The notes: generated by a model from the sequence alone, not told the origin. Counted from the first letter of the stretch, positions 35,805 to 45,196 are shown. The stretch is DNA of 64,000 nucleotides from Pseudomonas sp. (GCF_050282285.1 NZ_JBLZZJ010000013.1), one strand, 5' to 3'. Translations and numbers: made by a program.

Positions 35805-36007
35805 TTCAAGGCCTCACGCCTTGAACCGCTCACCTCCGCTCTTCCCCGCCATTCCTCCCCGAAAAACCCTGTCGCACAAACGACAATCTGTCGCGTTTAG
35901 TGTGTAGTGGTCTACTGAATCCGCCCCGTCATTGCGGTAAGAATGGGTGCTGCGTTGGGAACAATAACGTGGCCCTTTGCCACTTCTCACCGAACAAGGA
36001 ACGTCTG

Positions 36008-37123
36008 ATGACCACATCCGTGCTGCAAGGCCTGTACTGGCATGACCTCGACGGCATCCGCGAGCGTCACGCCGCCGGCGCCGACCTGAATGGTCTCGAC
36101 GACAACGGCTGCACGCCGCTGACCGAAGCCATCAGCGGCGGCATGGGGTATCCACCGGTGGTCAAGCTGCTGCTGGAACTGGGCGCCGACCCGCACCTCG
36201 CCGACGGCAACGGCCTGACACCCTGGCTGGCCTGCCTCATGCGCCGCCAGGACCGCGTGGTGGAAACCGAATACCGCAAGATTCGCAAACTGCTCGAAGC
36301 CGCCAAGGCCGACCGCCGTGGTGACGAACTCTTCGAACTGGAAGACAAGGCCGCCGCCGGTGACCTGCGCGCCGTGCAGGCGCTGCTCGACAAGGGCTGC
36401 CCGGTGGAGGGAGCGCACGCCGCCCCCCTGGGCGTTGCGCTGTTCAACGGTCACGGCGACGTGGCGGAACTGCTGCTGCAGCGTGGCGCCTCGGTCGAAG
36501 GCAAAGGGGCCGACGAGCACGGCATGACCCTGCTCATGAGCGCCGCCAATTATGGGCTGCTGGACATGGTGCAATTGCTGGTGCGCCACGGCGCCGACGT
36601 GTGCCGCGCCTGGAGCGGCCCCGACAGCTGCCAGACCGCCGCCTGGTACGCGCGCGATGCCGGCCACAACGAGGTCGCCGACTGGCTGGCCGCCCAGCAC
36701 CCGGGCGCCGAACGCAGCCCCATTCCCAAGGCCGCGCTCAACGGCGGTGCCAAGGCCAAGTACCTCGACCTCTACCGCCACTACACCCAGGGCGCCAACC
36801 ACGGCCTGAACACCGAGGCCATCGTCAAAAAGCTGCAGCGCTGGGACAAGGACTACGGCATCCACGTGCTTGATGTCGCCACCGACCGCCTCACCGTGCA
36901 GTTCGACCGCCTGCCCGACGACCTCGGCAAACTGGCCAAGGACCTCGGCAAATTCTGCCCCGACACCCTCGACAGCTTCGCCGCCCTGGCCGAACAGAAA
37001 ACCCCGACCCCTGACCAGCAAGCGCTGCTGCAAGGCCTCGACCCTGCCGACAAGCACTTCGCCCACAAGGCCCTGCAACGCTGGCTGCAGACCCACCAGG
37101 CCGTTGCGTTGTGGTGGGATTGA
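36008..37123 (+). CDS. Ankyrin-repeat protein with an unrelated C-terminal domain ending in WWD (possibly DUF4253-like)
   Basis: 371 aa counted from the ATG at 36008. It carries several ANK repeats (GCTPLTEAISGG...VVKLLLELGADPHLADGNGLTPW; GMTLLMSAANYGLLDMVQLLVRHGADV). A C-terminal region of about 120 aa ends ...KFCPDTLDSF...AVALWWD. The domain name is from memory only. Confidence 0.7.
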   Translation: MTTSVLQGLYWHDLDGIRERHAAGADLNGLDDNGCTPLTEAISGGMGYPPVVKLLLELGADPHLADGNGLTPWLACLMRRQDRVVETEYRKIRKLLEAAKADRRGDELFELEDKAAAGDLRAVQALLDKGCPVEGAHAAPLGVALFNGHGDVAELLLQRGASVEGKGADEHGMTLLMSAANYGLLDMVQLLVRHGADVCRAWSGPDSCQTAAWYARDAGHNEVADWLAAQHPGAERSPIPKAALNGGAKAKYLDLYRHYTQGANHGLNTEAIVKKLQRWDKDYGIHVLDVATDRLTVQFDRLPDDLGKLAKDLGKFCPDTLDSFAALAEQKTPTPDQQALLQGLDPADKHFAHKALQRWLQTHQAVALWWD

Positions 37124-37190: not shown

Positions 37191-37254
37191 TGCATCCGTA
37201 GTGTGGGTCGAGGCCCGGAGCTGAGTGCCGCCACTGACCGCGCGGCGCACCTAC

Positions 37255-37421
37255 CCTGTAGGAGCGGCTTCAGCCGCGAGCTCGGCGGCCTCATGGCAGC
37301 ATCGAGGTAGTGGTTCGACCGAAAAGCTCGCGGGCAAGCCCGCTCCTACAGGGTATGCGCGCCGCATGCGGAACTGGATGCCTGGCGCCGATCCTTGTAG
37401 GAGCGGCTTCAGCCGCGAGCT
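37255..37421. repeat. Three REP elements in alternating orientation
   Basis: The elements are cctgtaggagcggcttcagccgcgagct (37255), agctcgcgggcaagcccgctcctacagg (37325) and cttgtaggagcggcttcagccgcgagct (37394). Confidence 0.85.
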
Positions 37422-37467
37422 TGGCGATGTCATGGCGGACGCAGGGCGCCCACCTGACCCTGGGAAA

Positions 37468-37764
37468 TCAGCGCTGCTTGCACATCTCCAGCTCGGCCTG
37501 ACTGTTCAGCTCAGTGCGAATACCAAGGCGGTATTTGCAATAAGCGATCACCACCTGCCGCTCTTCATCGTTCAGTCGCTCGAGCGGTTTGTCGTCCTGG
37601 TCCGATGCATAAATATTCTCGAACCGCACCTGAAAGGTCGGGTGCTTTTTGATGAAAAACACCAGCCGGTTGTCTTCGGCAAAGTAGGTCTTGTAGAAGC
37701 CGACGCCCAGCCAGGCCAGTGACACGGCCAGCGCTACCAACAGCAGGGATATCCTGGTTTTCAT
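37468..37764 (-). CDS. Small exported/membrane-anchored hypothetical protein
   Basis: Track ORF 37468..37818 trimmed to MKTRISLLLVALAVSLAWLG..., giving 98 aa. The segment has lower G+C than its surroundings. I recognise no motif. Confidence 0.5.
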   Translation of the reverse strand: MKTRISLLLVALAVSLAWLGVGFYKTYFAEDNRLVFFIKKHPTFQVRFENIYASDQDDKPLERLNDEERQVVIAYCKYRLGIRTELNSQAELEMCKQR

Positions 37765-37910
37765 GATGTCGCCGACTCCTTGGCCTGCTGTATAGACGTT
37801 CTCACTGGGTTCATTCATCCCTGACCGCAGCCAATGTACCCCGTAGCCTGGGTCGAGCGAAGCGACACCCGGGACGATCTTTGCCCCGGCGCCGCTCGCT
37901 CACCGCGTAC

Positions 37911-38222
37911 TCAATGTCGCCGCGACGCCTCGCCAATCCCCTCGACACAGGCCCGCACCGTGGCCTTGGCCATTTCCACCAGGCAGGCGCAGGCATGGCC
38001 CATCTGTTCGCGGCGTTGCGCGTCGGTGTGGTTCAACTGAAGGGCCAGCTCCTCGGCCACATCCAGCAGGCTATAGGCACTGTCCAGCGCATCGGCCACC
38101 GGCACGCCGGGCTGCACGGCGAACAGTGGTTGCCGGGCGGCATTGCACGGATGGAACAGCGTGCTGACGGTTCTGGCCGCGTTGTGGTTGCCGGCTGGGG
38201 TGGGGCTGCATGAATCCTTCAT
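37911..38222 (-). CDS. Small hypothetical protein (resembles the Pseudomonas DUF3077-type family; from memory only)
   Basis: 103 aa with a strong AAGGAG 7 nt before the ATG. The core reads PLFAVQPGVPVADALDSAYSLLDVAEELALQL. Confidence 0.55.
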   Translation of the reverse strand: MKDSCSPTPAGNHNAARTVSTLFHPCNAARQPLFAVQPGVPVADALDSAYSLLDVAEELALQLNHTDAQRREQMGHACACLVEMAKATVRACVEGIGEASRRH

Positions 38223-38373
38223 GAGTACGGCTCCTTGATTTGAGAAGCCGCCACGTTCGTGACCAAACGAAATGGGTGGCGGCTGTACGCAGGTTGGTCA
38301 ACCGGGAATCAAGGAACCCGGCGCGCACGAATGCGCCCCACGCACAGCCACCATAAATCGGTTCAGCAGACAC

Positions 38374-38405: not shown

Positions 38406-38602
38406 ATGCGCCTTGATGTTCTCAGGTGACCAAACCCGGCCGCTGAATTGGCAGCGACGGGCGAACTGTAGGCGTTCGGGAGCCGGAGGCGCAAGACGGA
38501 TCGCCGGAGTAGAAGGTCAGCGTTAATCGACACGGGTGGTAGGAGAAGGCTGCAAGGTGCTGCCAGCGCCGGTTCCCGATAGATCCGTCCTGCCCGAGAA
38601 CG

Positions 38603-38634
38603 AAAAAAGCCCCAGGCATTCACCTGGGGCTTTT
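38603..38634 (-). terminator. Strong bidirectional hairpin terminator, probably the ancestral tRNA-Arg terminator
   Basis: gccccagg-cattca-cctggggc has six A upstream and four T downstream. It begins 10 nt beyond the displaced tRNA 3'-end copy. Confidence 0.75.
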
Positions 38635-38638
38635 CATG

Positions 38639-38653
38639 TCTGGCGCCTCGGCG
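38639..38653. repeat. Left direct repeat (attL-like): displaced copy of the tRNA-Arg 3' end
   Basis: tctggcgc-ctcggcg matches tctggcgcactcggcg at 43140-43155 in 15 of 16 positions, with one base missing. Confidence 0.65.
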
Positions 38654-38784
38654 TGCTTAGAATATGAACTGTAACTATCTGTTTTATATGTTTTTTCTGG
38701 TTAGTTATCTTTGCTGGGATACAAGTAGGGATACATGCTGTGCTGAGGACGAGGGGGCAGCGAACCGTCCCCTCCAGCAAATCA

Positions 38785-41019
38785 CTAGGCCGTGGTGATA
38801 GGAATCCGGACTTGAGTTCGAGGTTCCAACGGCAGCAAGATTTCCGCATAGGCTTGCAGCACAAGTGAGTACAGATTCTTGACTCGTGGTGCTTTCAGCG
38901 TTACCAGAAGCGCATACGGCATTGGACGAGCCTCTTTGTCCGCACGGCCTTCATCACGATTGTGATAGTAGAGATCAAAACAAGGCTTGACTAAAGACGA
39001 GCCGCGTTTTGTCTTTGACGCCTTAAGACATGGTTCCCACTTATGTCCGTCCTGCCTCAATTGGAGCTCTGACTTGTTGTAAATTTTCCCTGTAGAGAAA
39101 AAAGTGTCCGTGTTTGAATAATCTTCGCTTTTATCCTCAGCAACTTTTGTGGTGTCGGGGCGGAAGACGACCTCTAGCCCTGCTCGGGTATAGGCGTGTG
39201 CGAATGCAGGATCTACTTCCGGCGCGATAGCAAGAGTTGCTTTTACCTGTACATTTCCGGTTAGTACTGAGTCAGGCAGCGGGATTGGGGCCCTGAGATA
39301 TTTGCTCAGAGGCAGGAGTCCCTCGTAAAGAATTGTCACTTCGTCATCTTCACAAGCCAAGAGAACCTCTGGGTCGGAAATAAATCGACCCCAGCCAACT
39401 TCTTGGCTCTTATGGTCACCACTGTCTGAGTGATGAATCAAAAGAGCACGAATCCCCAGCGGAGATATATCCTCGCCAATCAATGCCCGGGCGCCAACAC
39501 ATGTGCGAAGTGCAAAGGGAGTCGCGAAACTTGTGCCTTCTACTCCTGATATTCCATGCGCATAGCTTGAGACGACGCCGAATGGTTGTTGAGTTGTGCC
39601 GCCGAATGAAACGCCATCTGGTTTTGCTATGCCTGGGGTTCTACCTGGACCTACTGAGCTGTAGGAGGCTCGAGACCAAATTTTATCCAGGGAGTCGCAT
39701 GCCCCCACTGATAGAACGTTTACACCATCAGCAGGAGGCTGGATTCGATTTAGTTTAAGCTCGTGATCTAGCTCGCCTGTGTTTCCGACGGCAACGGCTG
39801 CTAATACGTCTTTTTTTGCGAATCGTAGATCGAGTTCAAAGGTCCAGCGATTTATTTCATCATCTTCTACTGACATGTCGGGGCCGAGGCTGAAATTTAC
39901 GAAGTGGTACGGCTTCTCGACTCCATCAAGGTGATTTAGTATTCGATCTAGTACGTCGTAAAATTCAAAGTCACCATCTAAACCTGTTGCGTCATCAATA
40001 ACCCGTATATGGTCAACCTTGGAGTAGGGCATTGGGATGTTGTCGGTGCTGCTGATATGCCCGAACAGTATTGCTGATGTCACTGCCTCCCCATGATGGA
40101 GTAAGTCAATAGTTGCGTTTCCTACTCCCTCACCTTCATAGCAATTAACCCATTTGAGCAAGGGCGATCCCTGAGGGATGCCGCCGTCAAAGATGGCTAC
40201 TCGGACTTCGCTATCTAAAACTAACTCATCTGGGAGGGCAGAACTTCCCGAGTACAGGGTTCTAATCGCGCCAGGCTTAAAGGTGCGAAGGGTTGGCATT
40301 CTGCGCACAGCCCTTACATACGTAAAGGTGCCTACCTGCTCAAGAGAAACATTCGTTCCACGAATCGGAATAAATGTAATTCCTGACGAAAATCTGACTT
40401 TTTTCTTTATTGGTTCGACATTAATATGATCTAGAAAGTTATAGAATGAATTGAGTACGTTGGGATTCGCGCCACTGTGCAGAACAACTTCGAAAAGACC
40501 GCTCGTATTATTTGACTCTGGACCTTTAACTTTTGATTCGCCAGTCGGAATCGTGAGATCTTCAATCGCTTGTAGCTGTAAATGAGCATCACTGTCAGGC
40601 TGCCAGCCGTTAATTTTTTCTGCGAGTCCTCTCAGAGCTTTCCTTGTCGTGGAAACGAACAATGTGTCTGTTACCGCACCCTCTGGATGTTTTTCTATTC
40701 CCCATTGTTCTGGTTTGACATATTTGGATGTGCCGCCGACAGTGATGAAACCTACTTCATTAAGAAGCTCTTTGGGGAAGTCTGTCTTTGAGATAAATCT
40801 TGGGTGAATAACAATGTTTGCAATTACCTTGTCCTCTGGCAGCGCAGTGCTTTCCAAGTTGTCCAGGTAGGTGCATGCGTTGCGCAGCTTTGTTGTAATC
40901 CGCTCCTTTGCTGATGAAAAAGAATAGGCGGGGTTCTTCTCACTTGGGCCATTTTTTTTAGTCACAACTCTGGTTAGAGCTTCGCCCTTCCCAAGGAGGA
41001 AGTTTTTTTTCTTTTCCAT
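38785..41019 (-). CDS. Large cytoplasmic subtilisin-family (S8) serine protease with unknown N-terminal (~270 aa) and C-terminal (~240 aa) regions
   Basis: 744 aa with no signal peptide (MEKKKNFLLGKGEALTRVVTKKNGP...). The S8 catalytic motifs occur in the correct order: AIFD278GG, HH309GEAVTS, VAVGN413TG and GTS497FATP. Codon usage is A/T-rich. Confidence 0.85.
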   Translation of the reverse strand: MEKKKNFLLGKGEALTRVVTKKNGPSEKNPAYSFSSAKERITTKLRNACTYLDNLESTALPEDKVIANIVIHPRFISKTDFPKELLNEVGFITVGGTSKYVKPEQWGIEKHPEGAVTDTLFVSTTRKALRGLAEKINGWQPDSDAHLQLQAIEDLTIPTGESKVKGPESNNTSGLFEVVLHSGANPNVLNSFYNFLDHINVEPIKKKVRFSSGITFIPIRGTNVSLEQVGTFTYVRAVRRMPTLRTFKPGAIRTLYSGSSALPDELVLDSEVRVAIFDGGIPQGSPLLKWVNCYEGEGVGNATIDLLHHGEAVTSAILFGHISSTDNIPMPYSKVDHIRVIDDATGLDGDFEFYDVLDRILNHLDGVEKPYHFVNFSLGPDMSVEDDEINRWTFELDLRFAKKDVLAAVAVGNTGELDHELKLNRIQPPADGVNVLSVGACDSLDKIWSRASYSSVGPGRTPGIAKPDGVSFGGTTQQPFGVVSSYAHGISGVEGTSFATPFALRTCVGARALIGEDISPLGIRALLIHHSDSGDHKSQEVGWGRFISDPEVLLACEDDEVTILYEGLLPLSKYLRAPIPLPDSVLTGNVQVKATLAIAPEVDPAFAHAYTRAGLEVVFRPDTTKVAEDKSEDYSNTDTFFSTGKIYNKSELQLRQDGHKWEPCLKASKTKRGSSLVKPCFDLYYHNRDEGRADKEARPMPYALLVTLKAPRVKNLYSLVLQAYAEILLPLEPRTQVRIPITTA

Positions 41020-41032
41020 CAGCTGGTTCCCT

Positions 41033-42124
41033 TTATTTGTTGCTGGCAGTTTTCTTTCTGATTGTGTCTCTGGCTACGCCCGTTATTTCCGAAGCTCTTC
41101 GTTGGGTTACGCCAGCTTTTATTAGGCTACAGGCAAGCTCCAGTTTTGCGGGGCTAGGCAGCAGCAGCGCTTCCCTTGAAATTCGGTCAGATAATATCTC
41201 TGTTATTGGGGTTGAATTAATTATTGATGCCCGAAATGCAGAAGTTAGCCATTTTTCAACATCTGCGAATGAGTTGTTTGAAAAAATGATAGAGATTGCT
41301 GTTGATAGTTCTTCGGCATTTTTTATGTTTAGTTTTGTAAGTTTCGGTAATACGAATTTTGAAATTTCTAGTTTGTCAGGAAATGGTATTTCTATGATTT
41401 TGTCAAAGCGTCGCCATACAGCTCTGTCAAGAATTTCTGGGTGATTGGTCGCTGCGATTAGCATGCCATCTACAGGCCATTCATCCAAAGACTGCAAAAG
41501 TACGTTGACTAGCCGTTTTAGCTCTCCAACGTCACCAGCGTCATCACGTTTTTTTGCAACAGCATCAAACTCGTCTAGAAATAGAACGGAGCCATCATTG
41601 CTATGCTCCTTGAGAACGTTTTTTAGGTTGTTCCCTGTTTGGCCTAAGTAGCTGCTCATCACTGCAGCTAAATCTAGAGTTACTAACGGTCTTCCGAGTT
41701 GTTGTGCCAGCCACCTTGCAGACATAGTTTTTCCTACGCCTGGAGGTCCTGTGAAAAGCAGCGAACGAGTAGGAGAAATGCCAGCGTTCATCAGCTCCCT
41801 TACACGCTTGCGTTCTTCAATAATTTCATAGAGATCATGTTCTATGCTCGAGCTCCAGACAGGCTCTCCAGCGCTCTCAAAAGAGCTAAAGACCATTGAC
41901 GGACTTGTCTCTTTGTTACCAAAGGTGGTGGGGGTTGCTTTTCTCAAGCCGTCAGCTGGATTGTCCTCTGTTTTTGATAGCAGTCCTTTCAACTGCGATG
42001 AAAGCTCAGGGTGTTCCCCTTGAAATTTACGCGTAGCTCGTCGGATCACCATAAGGGCATCCTGTTGACGGCCGGAAAGGGCTAGTCTTGCGAGCTGGAC
42101 GTAATCCGTGTAGATGTCATTCAT
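41033..42124 (-). CDS. Classic-clade AAA+ ATPase with a C-terminal helix-turn-helix-like tail
   Basis: 363 aa. It has Walker A GPPGVGK132T, Walker B VLFLDE185FD, sensor-1 IAATN227 and the second region of homology PEILDRAVWRRF. The C-terminus reads LIKAGVTQRRASEITGVARDTIRKK. It ends 13 nt before the protease ATG. Confidence 0.85.
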   Translation of the reverse strand: MNDIYTDYVQLARLALSGRQQDALMVIRRATRKFQGEHPELSSQLKGLLSKTEDNPADGLRKATPTTFGNKETSPSMVFSSFESAGEPVWSSSIEHDLYEIIEERKRVRELMNAGISPTRSLLFTGPPGVGKTMSARWLAQQLGRPLVTLDLAAVMSSYLGQTGNNLKNVLKEHSNDGSVLFLDEFDAVAKKRDDAGDVGELKRLVNVLLQSLDEWPVDGMLIAATNHPEILDRAVWRRFDKIIEIPFPDKLEISKFVLPKLTKLNIKNAEELSTAISIIFSNNSFADVEKWLTSAFRASIINSTPITEILSDRISREALLLPSPAKLELACSLIKAGVTQRRASEITGVARDTIRKKTASNK

Positions 42125-42177
42125 TTCGTCCGCCTGTAAGCCGCTTGAAATGGGGCTTTCGTGTTGAATTGGGCGAC

Positions 42178-42207
42178 ACTATAGATGCTTGATGATAATT
42201 CGTCCAA
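42178..42207 (-). promoter_or_regulatory. Candidate sigma-70 promoter of the ATPase-protease operon
   Basis: The minus strand reads TTGGAC-N18-TATAGT, about 50 nt upstream of the ATPase ATG. The palindrome gttctgcttaacagaac (42214-42230) lies just upstream. Confidence 0.35.
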
Positions 42208-42638
42208 TTCTGCTGTTCTGCTTAACAGAACCAAACCCGGCCGGCTAAACAAGCGGGGTTTAGCACCGCTAAGCACGGTTAAGCACTGCAAATCTGTTGC
42301 TACATGGGGTCGAAAGGTGGCGTTGCTCGTTTAGAAGAATTCTGGCTTCTCAGCGGCTCAGGCTGCAGGGTTTTGCAGGGATCGAATCTGCGAGTAAACC
42401 GACGATGGTGCCAACACTTATGCACATGCGAGGCGGGTGAGGGGGGGGCAGGGAAAACCATAGGTTTAGCGGGCAGGCGTGGAGGGGGGAAGACTGCGCG
42501 CGCCCGCAGCAGCTCGATGGCTGGTCAGGGGCGGTAGGGTTGATCGGTGTGAAGCGGGACGCCCATGCTTGAGGCCGAAGCAGGTGAAAAAAGAAAGCCG
42601 CACAGGGCGGCTTTCTGGGACATTGAGGCCGGGGGAGG

Positions 42639-43021
42639 TCAGACGGTCTTGAGCCCTTTTGTCGGGCCGTAGTTCTCACCCCTGCTACCGATCTCGTCAG
42701 GGATCTTGCCGCCATGGGGACTAGCTTTTTCAGGGCGACGCGGTTGCCTGCTACTACCTCCCCCGATACCGCTGCTGGCACAGCTACTAACACCGTCTGC
42801 GCCTTGCGGTTGGTCTTCATAACTTCGCCCAGCACCAGGCGAGCGAAGTTCACCAGCGCGGCTTGCGTGTAGCCGCCCGCGATCACTGGGCCCAGTGGCT
42901 CGGTGCTCCGCTCGATCTCGGTATTGATCATGCGTTGGTCAGTGCGTGGTGCCTGGGCCAGGGCTTTCCAACTGGCGTTGGCTTCGCTGGCCCCCTCTTC
43001 TAAGAGTTCCAGAGGATGCAC
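42639..43021 (-). pseudogene. Possible frameshifted small ORF of unknown family between the operon and the tRNA
   Basis: Track ORF 42350..43021 looks coding only for about 95 codons. A shift of one base near 42705-42715 gives ...GKIPDEIGSRGENYGPTKGLKTV* with a stop at 42639-42641. That stop lies 23 nt before a minus-strand hairpin and T-run at 42587-42615. Confidence 0.25.
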
Positions 43022-43141: not shown

Positions 43142-43218
43142 TGGCGCACTCGGCGGGATTCGAACCCACGACCCCTGCCTTCGGAGGGCAGTACTCTATC
43201 CAGCTGAGCTACGAGTGC
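43142..43218 (-). tRNA. tRNA-Arg (anticodon CCG)
   Basis: The reverse complement is GCACTCGTAGCTCAGCTGGATAGAGTACTGCCCTCCGAAGGCAGGGGTCGTGGGTTCGAATCCCGCCGAGTGCGCCA. It folds by hand into a 77-nt cloverleaf with a 7-bp acceptor stem, GTGGG/CCCGC T-stem, TTCGAAT T-loop, anticodon loop CT-CCG-AA and an encoded CCA. Confidence 0.93.
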
Positions 43219-45073: not shown

Positions 45074-45196
45074 TCACACCGTTACTCGCAGTGGCCGGGA
45101 AAGCTGGGGCAGTCGATCATCGCATGCTGCCGTAGTTGCCTCCCCGCCACGTAATCCTTGAACCACGCCGACCGATGAGCGGCGAATGAGGACGTC

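Follow-up and report, generated by a model that had tools for sequence, protein, structure and literature searches.

A divergent IetAS ATPase–protease module, very probably the surviving cargo of a decayed P4-like satellite beside a tRNA-Arg gene in Pseudomonas sp.

Two adjacent genes encoding an AAA+ ATPase and a subtilisin-like (S8) protease were analyzed in a 64,000-nucleotide stretch of Pseudomonas sp. DNA (GCF_050282285.1 NZ_JBLZZJ010000013.1), hereafter called the window. Both genes lie on the minus strand with the ATPase gene first, and the 13-nt spacer between the open reading frames (ORFs) contains a weak ribosome-binding site (AGGGA). A preliminary description of this DNA, made from the sequence, had given both ORFs with exactly these coordinates, lengths and spacing. 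The genes were named ietA and ietS according to the family assignment described below. The gene pair and its downstream end comprise the following features:

41033..42124, minus strand: ietA, 363-aa classic-clade AAA+ ATPase (PADLOC IetA, Pfam AAA, invariant motifs, AF2/Foldseek)
38785..41019, minus strand: ietS, 744-aa cytoplasmic S8 subtilase (PADLOC IetS, Pfam S8, invariant triad, AF2/Foldseek)
38602..38634, minus strand: probable terminator, a hairpin with a T-run 3' of ietS, at the end of the cassette shared with related loci (sequence reading; inside the block common to loci L004 and L005)

A single promoter upstream of ietA, described below, would drive co-transcription of the two genes.

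The preliminary description had proposed a defence-type module on a mobile islet, either a homologue of IetAS or an independent, undescribed ATPase–protease pairing, and had named profile searches as the check. These searches placed the pair in IetAS. IetA matched PADLOC model PDLC02196 with an E value of 1.6e-71 (239.7 bits; residues 38–311 on profile positions 38–315 of 374), and IetS matched PDLC02197 with an E value of 3.9e-48 (162.3 bits; residues 36–723 on profile positions 37–730 of 749). The founder pair of the family from the Agrobacterium plasmid pTiC58 (NC_003065, 97873–101373), searched with the same library, scored 239 bits for IetA and 85.6 bits on the best model for IetS. Because the scores of the window pair are equal (IetA) or higher (IetS), it qualifies as IetAS by profile definition at least as well as the founder does. 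The PADLOC/Gao_Iet definition is matched by an IetA profile hit, an IetS profile hit, adjacent co-oriented genes with the ATPase first, and an intact ATPase site and catalytic triad. The pair lies outside the narrow NCBIfam IteA_antiphage/IteS_antiphage equivalog group, which is defined by curated whole-protein cut-offs. On the evidence of profiles and alignments, the window pair is a true but divergent IetAS homologue of a distinct subfamily, and thus a known kind of system. Anti-phage activity of this subfamily would be expected by analogy with the family members that have been studied.

The linkage of the two genes was found to be nearly universal. Of the 141 testable loci with an IetS homologue, which come from many phyla and from IMG/VR contigs, 140 have an IetA homologue as the next gene upstream in the same orientation, and no conserved third gene was detected among 132 nearest-neighbour ORFs from 34 loci. 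The ATPase–protease pair is a self-contained mobile two-gene unit. More than 1,100 IetS relatives were found by protein search; among the matches listed, nearly all are full length (~740–750 aa), with identities of 97% in two metagenome contigs, 72–79% in P. aeruginosa, 56% in Chromohalobacter and ~46% in Bacillus/Paenibacillus. A genome scan limited to one genome per species found 309 loci, of which 80 were kept, spanning Gammaproteobacteria, Bacillota, Myxococcota, Acidobacteriota, Planctomycetota, Chloroflexota, Bacteroidota, Chlamydiota and others; the distribution is patchy over distant phyla at 40–55% identity. IetS relatives were also present in 64 viral contigs of IMG/VR and in the GenBank phages phiT5282H and PfAC08.

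The genomic contexts of the relatives were surveyed, as the preliminary description had proposed, and include satellites, prophages, plasmids and defence islands. IetAS is positioned at the end of a P4-like satellite in both 97% relatives and in P. aeruginosa. The Chromohalobacter relative adjoins an SLFN-type helicase, a MazG-like gene and AbiEi; the B. cereus relative lies inside an integrase islet; the pair on the Acidovorax plasmid adjoins Shedu; and an Agrobacterium plasmid relative adjoins a caspase-family gene and Tn3. The 132 neighbour ORFs are mixed, with cyclic-oligonucleotide-based anti-phage signalling system (CBASS) genes, type I restriction-modification specificity subunits and resolvase(s) beside many housekeeping or metabolic genes. 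Taken one by one, the contexts named above are those usual for defence cargo; the survey is a listing of content and not a formal measure of defence-island enrichment.

To describe IetA, an alignment of 58 homologous sequences was used. Walker A (GPPGVGK132T), Walker B (D184–E185), sensor-1 (N227) and the arginines R238–R239 were invariant, in agreement with the motifs read in the preliminary description. AAA was the sole Pfam domain seen (E value, 2.4e-31). Pore loop 1 (S157-S158-Y159-L160-G161) is of the aromatic-hydrophobic-Gly type, with F/Y at position 159 and an aromatic residue in 53 of the 58 sequences. An AlphaFold2 (AF2) model made from the 58-sequence alignment reached a predicted local distance difference test score (pLDDT) of 85 and consists of an N-terminal three-helix bundle, a disordered linker (residues 55–74), the AAA+ core and a C-terminal helix-turn-helix (HTH) at 324–362. 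The best Foldseek matches of the core were FtsH, p97, PAN and Vps4. The C-terminal tail, which had been called HTH-like, carries the invariant or nearly invariant motif G338-x-S-Q341-R342...G349-x-S-R352-D-T354-I-R356-K; Q341, R342, R352, T354 and R356 are strictly invariant, and conservation of the tail equals that of the catalytic site. The tail was modelled as helices at a pLDDT of ~95, and Pfam labels HTH_7, HTH_23 or HTH_38 occur on some homologues. As judged by alignment and model together, the HTH tail of IetA is real.

The S8 catalytic set of IetS was upheld in the same way: D278, H309 and S497 are invariant in an alignment of 58 IetS homologues, and N413 is at least 90% conserved. Peptidase_S8 (residues 272–544; E value, 4.6e-13) was the sole Pfam domain seen. 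No hydrophobic N-terminal segment or signal peptide was found by reading the sequence, as had been described. The N-terminal 272 aa, previously considered unassignable, gave no Pfam or PDB-sequence match at E ≤ 10 and nevertheless contain many invariant residues. The AF2 model (pLDDT 85; predicted template modelling score, 0.88) shows an alpha/beta part (~17–125), a second alpha/beta part (~152–245), the subtilisin domain and an all-beta C-terminal sandwich (~556–715). Residues 174–240 have a beta-alpha-beta-beta-alpha-beta topology. The top Foldseek matches were pro-subtilases with a retained propeptide and a C-terminal jelly roll or sandwich, namely ProN-Tk-SP (3afg; aligned over 591 columns) and fervidolysin (1r6v; 609 columns), and further matches included KP-43 and Kex2/furin, both with C-terminal domains. 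Viral matches include proteins labelled "Peptidase inhibitor I9." From the model, we infer that IetS resembles a pro-subtilase, with an I9-like prodomain before the catalytic domain and a beta-sandwich behind it; the I9-like assignment is based on topology and whole-model Foldseek alignments.

The extreme N-terminus of IetS (residues 1–15; window 40975–41019, minus strand) also drew attention. Over the range from Pseudomonas to Bacillus and Myxococcota, conservation of the pattern x-N-F-L-L-G-x-G-E-x-L is 90% or more, which is unusual at a protein terminus. IetA could use this NFLLGxGE terminus as a tag for docking or engagement.

A candidate regulatory region was identified upstream of ietA and contains three features:

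42178..42206, minus strand: predicted sigma-70 promoter of ietAS, TGGACG-17 nt-TATAGT (promoter scan)
42170..42206, minus strand: putative IetA operator, an inverted repeat bracketing the core promoter (TGGACGA at 42206-42200 and TCGCCCA at 42176-42170)
42126..42132, minus strand: third box resembling a half-site, CGGACGA, placed 2 nt ahead of the ietA ATG and overlapping the Shine-Dalgarno region (sequence reading)

The predicted promoter is kept in the 91%-identical cassette described below and in the P. aeruginosa homologues. The TGGACGA half-site of the window overlaps the predicted -35 element, and TCGCCCA follows directly after the TATAGT -10 element; the box at ~-9 recurs in many homologous loci. 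A k-mer count found TGGACTA or its reverse complement in 51 of 82 ietA upstream regions, compared with a maximum of 15 in shuffled controls. The general form of the operator is (G)TGGAC[T/G]A-N~23-T[A/C]GTCCA(C), with its halves at ~-83 and ~-53 from the start codon, over the -35/-10 elements. When searched strictly as TGGAC[TG]A-N20-26-T[AC]GTCCA, the inverted repeat occurred in 39 of 136 ietA upstream regions and nowhere in 2.42 Mb of remaining locus DNA. Half-sites were 18-fold enriched upstream of ietA (4.0 per kb vs. 0.225 per kb background). The presence of the motif was associated with the HTH sequence: the recognition helix [SA]R[DE]T[ILVM]R[KR] was found in 49 of 63 motif-bearing loci and in 19 of 74 motif-less loci (Fisher p ~1e-9, uncorrected for phylogeny). 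Because the HTH tail co-varies with the inverted repeat across ietA promoters, these sequence data suggest that IetA binds its own promoter and is autoregulated.

Two further sequence elements precede the ietA promoter. One, at 42259-42290, is a tandem array of three 10-nt copies reading GTGCTTA(A/G)NN on the minus strand; it is present only in the window and its 91%-identical relative and was set aside as a general operator. The other, a 6-bp hairpin (GTTCTG-TTAAG-CAGAAC), follows at 42215-42231.

The pair is embedded in an AT-rich islet next to a tRNA gene. The G + C content is 0.40–0.52 over ~38.5–42.5 kb and 0.62–0.69 outside. The features of the islet are as follows:

43142..43218, minus strand: tRNA-Arg(CCG), probable former satellite attachment site (ARAGORN, Rfam)
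42640-43021, minus strand: frameshifted ORF between tRNA-Arg and the cassette (no Pfam match)
42465..42504, minus strand: conserved boundary element of ~40 nt, GGCGCGCGCAGTC(T/G)TCCCCCC..CCACGCCT, at the cassette's upstream edge (blastn and alignment)
38595..42510, minus strand: mobile IetAS cassette, AT-rich, 3.9 kb (blastn, GC profile, satellite context of loci L004, L005 and L001)
38419-38471, minus strand: a1/b1 target element of C4 RNA (Rfam RF03163, 56.5 bits; gathering score 46.7)
38272-38358, minus strand: C4 antisense RNA (Rfam RF01695, 85.6 bits; gathering score 45)
37911..38222, minus strand: DUF3077 gene, belonging to the core of the P. aeruginosa satellite (Pfam PF11275; E value, 4e-11)
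37468-37818, minus strand: 116-aa ORF after DUF3077, with one predicted hydrophobic helix, apparently intact

BlastN analysis demonstrated that the cassette, including the promoter region and terminator, shares 90.7% DNA identity with the cargo of P4-like satellites in two metagenome contigs. The IetS protein of this closest homologue is 97% identical while the cassette DNA is 90.7% identical, which points to purifying selection. The ~40-nt element is common to P. aeruginosa satellites at 90% identity with diverged flanks, and one P. aeruginosa assembly contig is broken within it. The variable cargo position of the satellite may have its boundary or recombination site here.

Below the cassette, the C4 RNA and its a1/b1 target form the immunity/leader module of P4-like elements. 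The same pair is found at positions 2817-3018 of L001, an intact P. aeruginosa satellite (CP106784), in which C4, a1/b1 and DUF3077 stand as a trio upstream of the primase. The DUF3077 gene of the window has 79% DNA identity to the L001 copy and looks intact. An isrK-like match, below threshold, lies between the C4 RNA and the a1/b1 element. In the frameshifted ORF on the other side, the first part is in one frame and the last ~40 codons are in another, with a stop before a terminator at 42592-42616.

An intact satellite such as L001 has an integrase by the tRNA, AlpA, Ogr/Delta and a Toprim-DUF927 primase. The satellite primase and the 250–258-aa core proteins of L001, L004 and L005 were not found in the window by tblastn. 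According to the ORF lists, only small ORFs and no integrase lie between the tRNA and the cassette, a result obtained with no informative integrase query; no search was aimed at AlpA or Ogr/Delta in the window. No att repeat or second copy of the tRNA 3' end delimiting the islet was found. What does remain of a satellite is the C4 RNA with its a1/b1 target, DUF3077 and the cargo position after the boundary element. Judged by this content, the islet (~37.45–43.14 kb) is a mosaic left over from one or two P4-like satellites, in which the IetAS cassette and the C4/DUF3077 leader survive. The tRNA-linked AT-rich islet of the preliminary description is therefore retained, and its statement that the pair is the only intact cargo is not, given the C4 RNA, the DUF3077 gene and the 116-aa ORF downstream.

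Other elements in and around the islet were noted. An exact 14-nt direct repeat, ACCAAACCCGGCCG, is found at 38429-38442 inside a1/b1 and at 42230-42243 upstream of the ietA promoter. About 0.08 such 14-nt repeats are expected by chance in the region; as an islet boundary it was rejected and taken as chance, since the 91%-identical cassette does not share it. At the far islet edge (37242-37436), a cluster of palindromes, CCTGTAGGAGCGGCTTCAGCCGCGAGC and relatives, occurs in two direct and two inverted copies, which resemble the repetitive extragenic palindromic (REP) elements known from Pseudomonas genomes. Just beyond the islet (35900-37123, plus strand) lies a gene for a 407-aa protein that combines ankyrin repeats with a DUF4253 domain at the C terminus. 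A gabT RNA motif (Rfam RF01738, 67.3 bits), ordinary for Pseudomonas, lies at 45090-45151 (plus strand) between gabD-like and gabT-like genes.

It is known that IetAS was first described as a stability or toxin-antitoxin system on pTiC58 (Yamamoto 2009, as cited in PMC13069673), a history absent from the preliminary description. The protease serves as toxin, with the ATPase as its antitoxin, and SgiAT of Salmonella genomic island 1 (SGI1) is likewise a stability system (PMC5006074). In ietHAS, an ietA mutant was not clonable and protease activity was needed for defence (PMC13069673). Protection against phage has been reported for family members (Gao 2020, as cited in PMC13069673), and B. cereus m1293 ietAS, studied by Stokar-Avihail et al., causes abortive infection triggered by SPbeta YosG (bioRxiv 10.1101/2022.08.27.505566). 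How IetAS acts against phage is described as still unknown in a 2026 paper (PMC13069673).

In view of these reports, the locus is very probably an intact IetAS module, a toxin-antitoxin-like abortive-infection system that survives as cargo of a decayed P4-like satellite beside tRNA-Arg. IetS would be a cytoplasmic subtilase that is toxic when free and is probably zymogen-like, with an I9-like prodomain before the catalytic domain and a beta-sandwich after it. IetA would keep IetS harmless in an ATP-dependent manner, an antitoxin role known from the literature on other family members, possibly by threading or remodelling IetS. Through its C-terminal HTH, it may bind the inverted repeat around its own promoter and repress itself as classical antitoxins do, as the comparative data suggest. 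A phage product would then upset the balance between IetA and IetS, and the freed protease would cleave host and/or phage proteins and halt the infected cell.

Several points weigh against this interpretation. With respect to family, the pair scores below the NCBIfam equivalog cut-offs (IteA NF042959, 203.4 vs. 510 bits; IteS NF042956, 106.2 vs. 900 bits), and because these cut-offs are missed, the relatives are named only "S8 family peptidase" or "ATP-binding protein" in RefSeq. No tested system was found that clearly belongs to the window subfamily, and the IetA N-terminus of the validated m1293 system, as seen in the first ~500 nt of the clone, groups with pTiC58 and not with the window type. 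Neutralisation of the protease by IetA is taken from relatives. The I9-like prodomain has no sequence signal in Pfam or PDB and rests on whole-model Foldseek alignments and topology. As for the operator, the window half-site TCGCCCA deviates by one nucleotide from TCGTCCA, about half of all loci do not have the strict motif, and the statistic for covariation of HTH and operator ignores phylogeny.

A more specific version of the mechanism assigns two functions to IetA, an HTH autorepressor acting on a cassette-borne operator and an AAA+ unfoldase restraining IetS, so that infection would free the protease and derepress the operon together. IetA would perhaps engage the N-terminus of IetS or its I9-like prodomain. 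We put this version forward tentatively and regard it as doubtful. The opposite role for the ATPase, essentially the model of the preliminary description, is that IetA is an activator: on sensing a phage cue, it would unfold or remove the prodomain of IetS and so turn on the zymogen. The conserved pore loop and ATPase motifs of IetA, the pro-subtilase-like build of IetS and the nearly invariant NFLLGxGE as a possible engagement handle would all suit an activator. However, in three studied relatives the protease was toxic without the ATPase or ietA mutants were unclonable, which indicates restraint (PMC5006074; PMC13069673). Activation by IetA is thus unlikely; the earlier proposal of a sensor or unfoldase ATPase with an effector protease holds for the class and family of the proteins but not for the role of the ATPase, whose published function is restraint.

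The function of the module as a whole can also be read differently. It is possible, though not the explanation we favour, that the pair is an addiction module that stabilises its carrier by post-segregational killing, with phage defence secondary or absent. The IetAS of pTiC58 and SgiAT of SGI1 were both described as stability systems (PMC5006074; PMC13069673), the module is found on many plasmids, and the loss of the satellite primase, and apparently of the integrase, beside an intact cassette is what an addictive module would produce. On the other hand, abortive infection by other members protects against phage (Gao 2020, as cited in PMC13069673; bioRxiv 10.1101/2022.08.27.505566). Moreover, in the P4-like satellites examined, the cassette is found at the variable cargo position. 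Defence genes are the typical content of such satellite hotspots. Addiction and defence are in any case compatible with each other. It is very unlikely that a dead mobile element has left the pair behind as an inactive relic, as the degraded satellite, the missing primase, the apparent lack of an integrase and the frameshifted adjacent ORF might imply; both ORFs are full length, all catalytic and ATPase residues as well as the promoter and terminator are conserved, and IetS differs from its closest homologue far less in protein (97% identity) than the cassette does in DNA (90.7%). A reading of IetS as a secreted or housekeeping subtilase that has its own chaperone and no relation to IetAS is hardly credible. 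Without defence profiles only generic S8 and AAA domains are visible, but this explanation is refuted by the strong IetA and IetS profile matches, the patchy distribution at 40–55% identity and the upstream ATPase linkage, and further opposed by the absence of a signal peptide and by heterogeneous, often mobile neighbourhoods.

For annotation, the locus represents a routine defence or addiction module that PADLOC-type profiles recognise and NCBI equivalog models miss. The cassette appears to be cargo that can be exchanged at the variable end of P4-like satellites of Pseudomonas, and it can outlive the satellite. The cross-phyla operator that co-varies with the IetA HTH, the pro-subtilase-like model of IetS and the history as satellite cargo provide leads for the mechanism of IetAS and are unsurprising in kind. 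If the dual function of IetA were true, it would give a first mechanistic outline for IetAS, with an unusual antitoxin acting by ATP-driven remodelling and not by simple binding.

Compared with named systems, the window pair shares the basic gene order of the pTiC58 founder, in which the AAA+ gene is directly upstream of the S8 protease gene. The two IetA proteins are 42% identical over the AAA+ core and score equally on one PADLOC model, whereas the founder IetA (328 aa) is without the C-terminal HTH. The founder IetS (836 aa) is 23% identical in its C-terminal half only (E value, 1e-4), and its N-terminal part is different. The same full-length architecture as in the window is present in the NCBIfam IteA/IteS pair of Acidovorax sp. 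T1 plasmid p1-T1, a type we take to be the one that Gao et al. tested in 2020. Identities to this pair are 38% for IetA and 27% for IetS, and its IteS type fits the PADLOC IetS model PDLC02197 at 980 bits. The Acidovorax IteA also ends in an HTH-like segment, GVSQRQIRNAI, but its recognition helix differs from that of the window IetA.

SgiAT (S026/S025) resembles the window pair in that an integrated mobile element carries an ATPase antitoxin together with a subtilase toxin (PMC5006074). According to that paper, through which alone SgiAT is known here, it shares 50% and 36% identity with the pTiC58 pair, which places it in the pTiC58-like branch. B. cereus m1293 ietAS has the family label and the two-gene layout in common with the window; the first ~500 nt of its clone gave no match in plasmid or phage collections. 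The ietHAS system of Liu-DS4 (PMC13069673) has the same IetA/IetS core, but it includes a third gene encoding an SNF2 helicase, IetH, and no helicase lies beside the window pair or its surveyed relatives. The IetAS of the Pseudomonas filamentous phage PfAC08 (OR818368; PMC11878078) shares a Pseudomonas host and a mobile carrier with the window pair, and its IetS is a full-length but distant relative with 33.6% identity over 97% of the protein; the carrier there is a Pf prophage and here a P4-like satellite remnant. IetAS is thus already known as a protease-toxin/ATPase-antitoxin stability module and abortive-infection defence, a picture that these findings leave unchanged and to which the window pair adds a subfamily.

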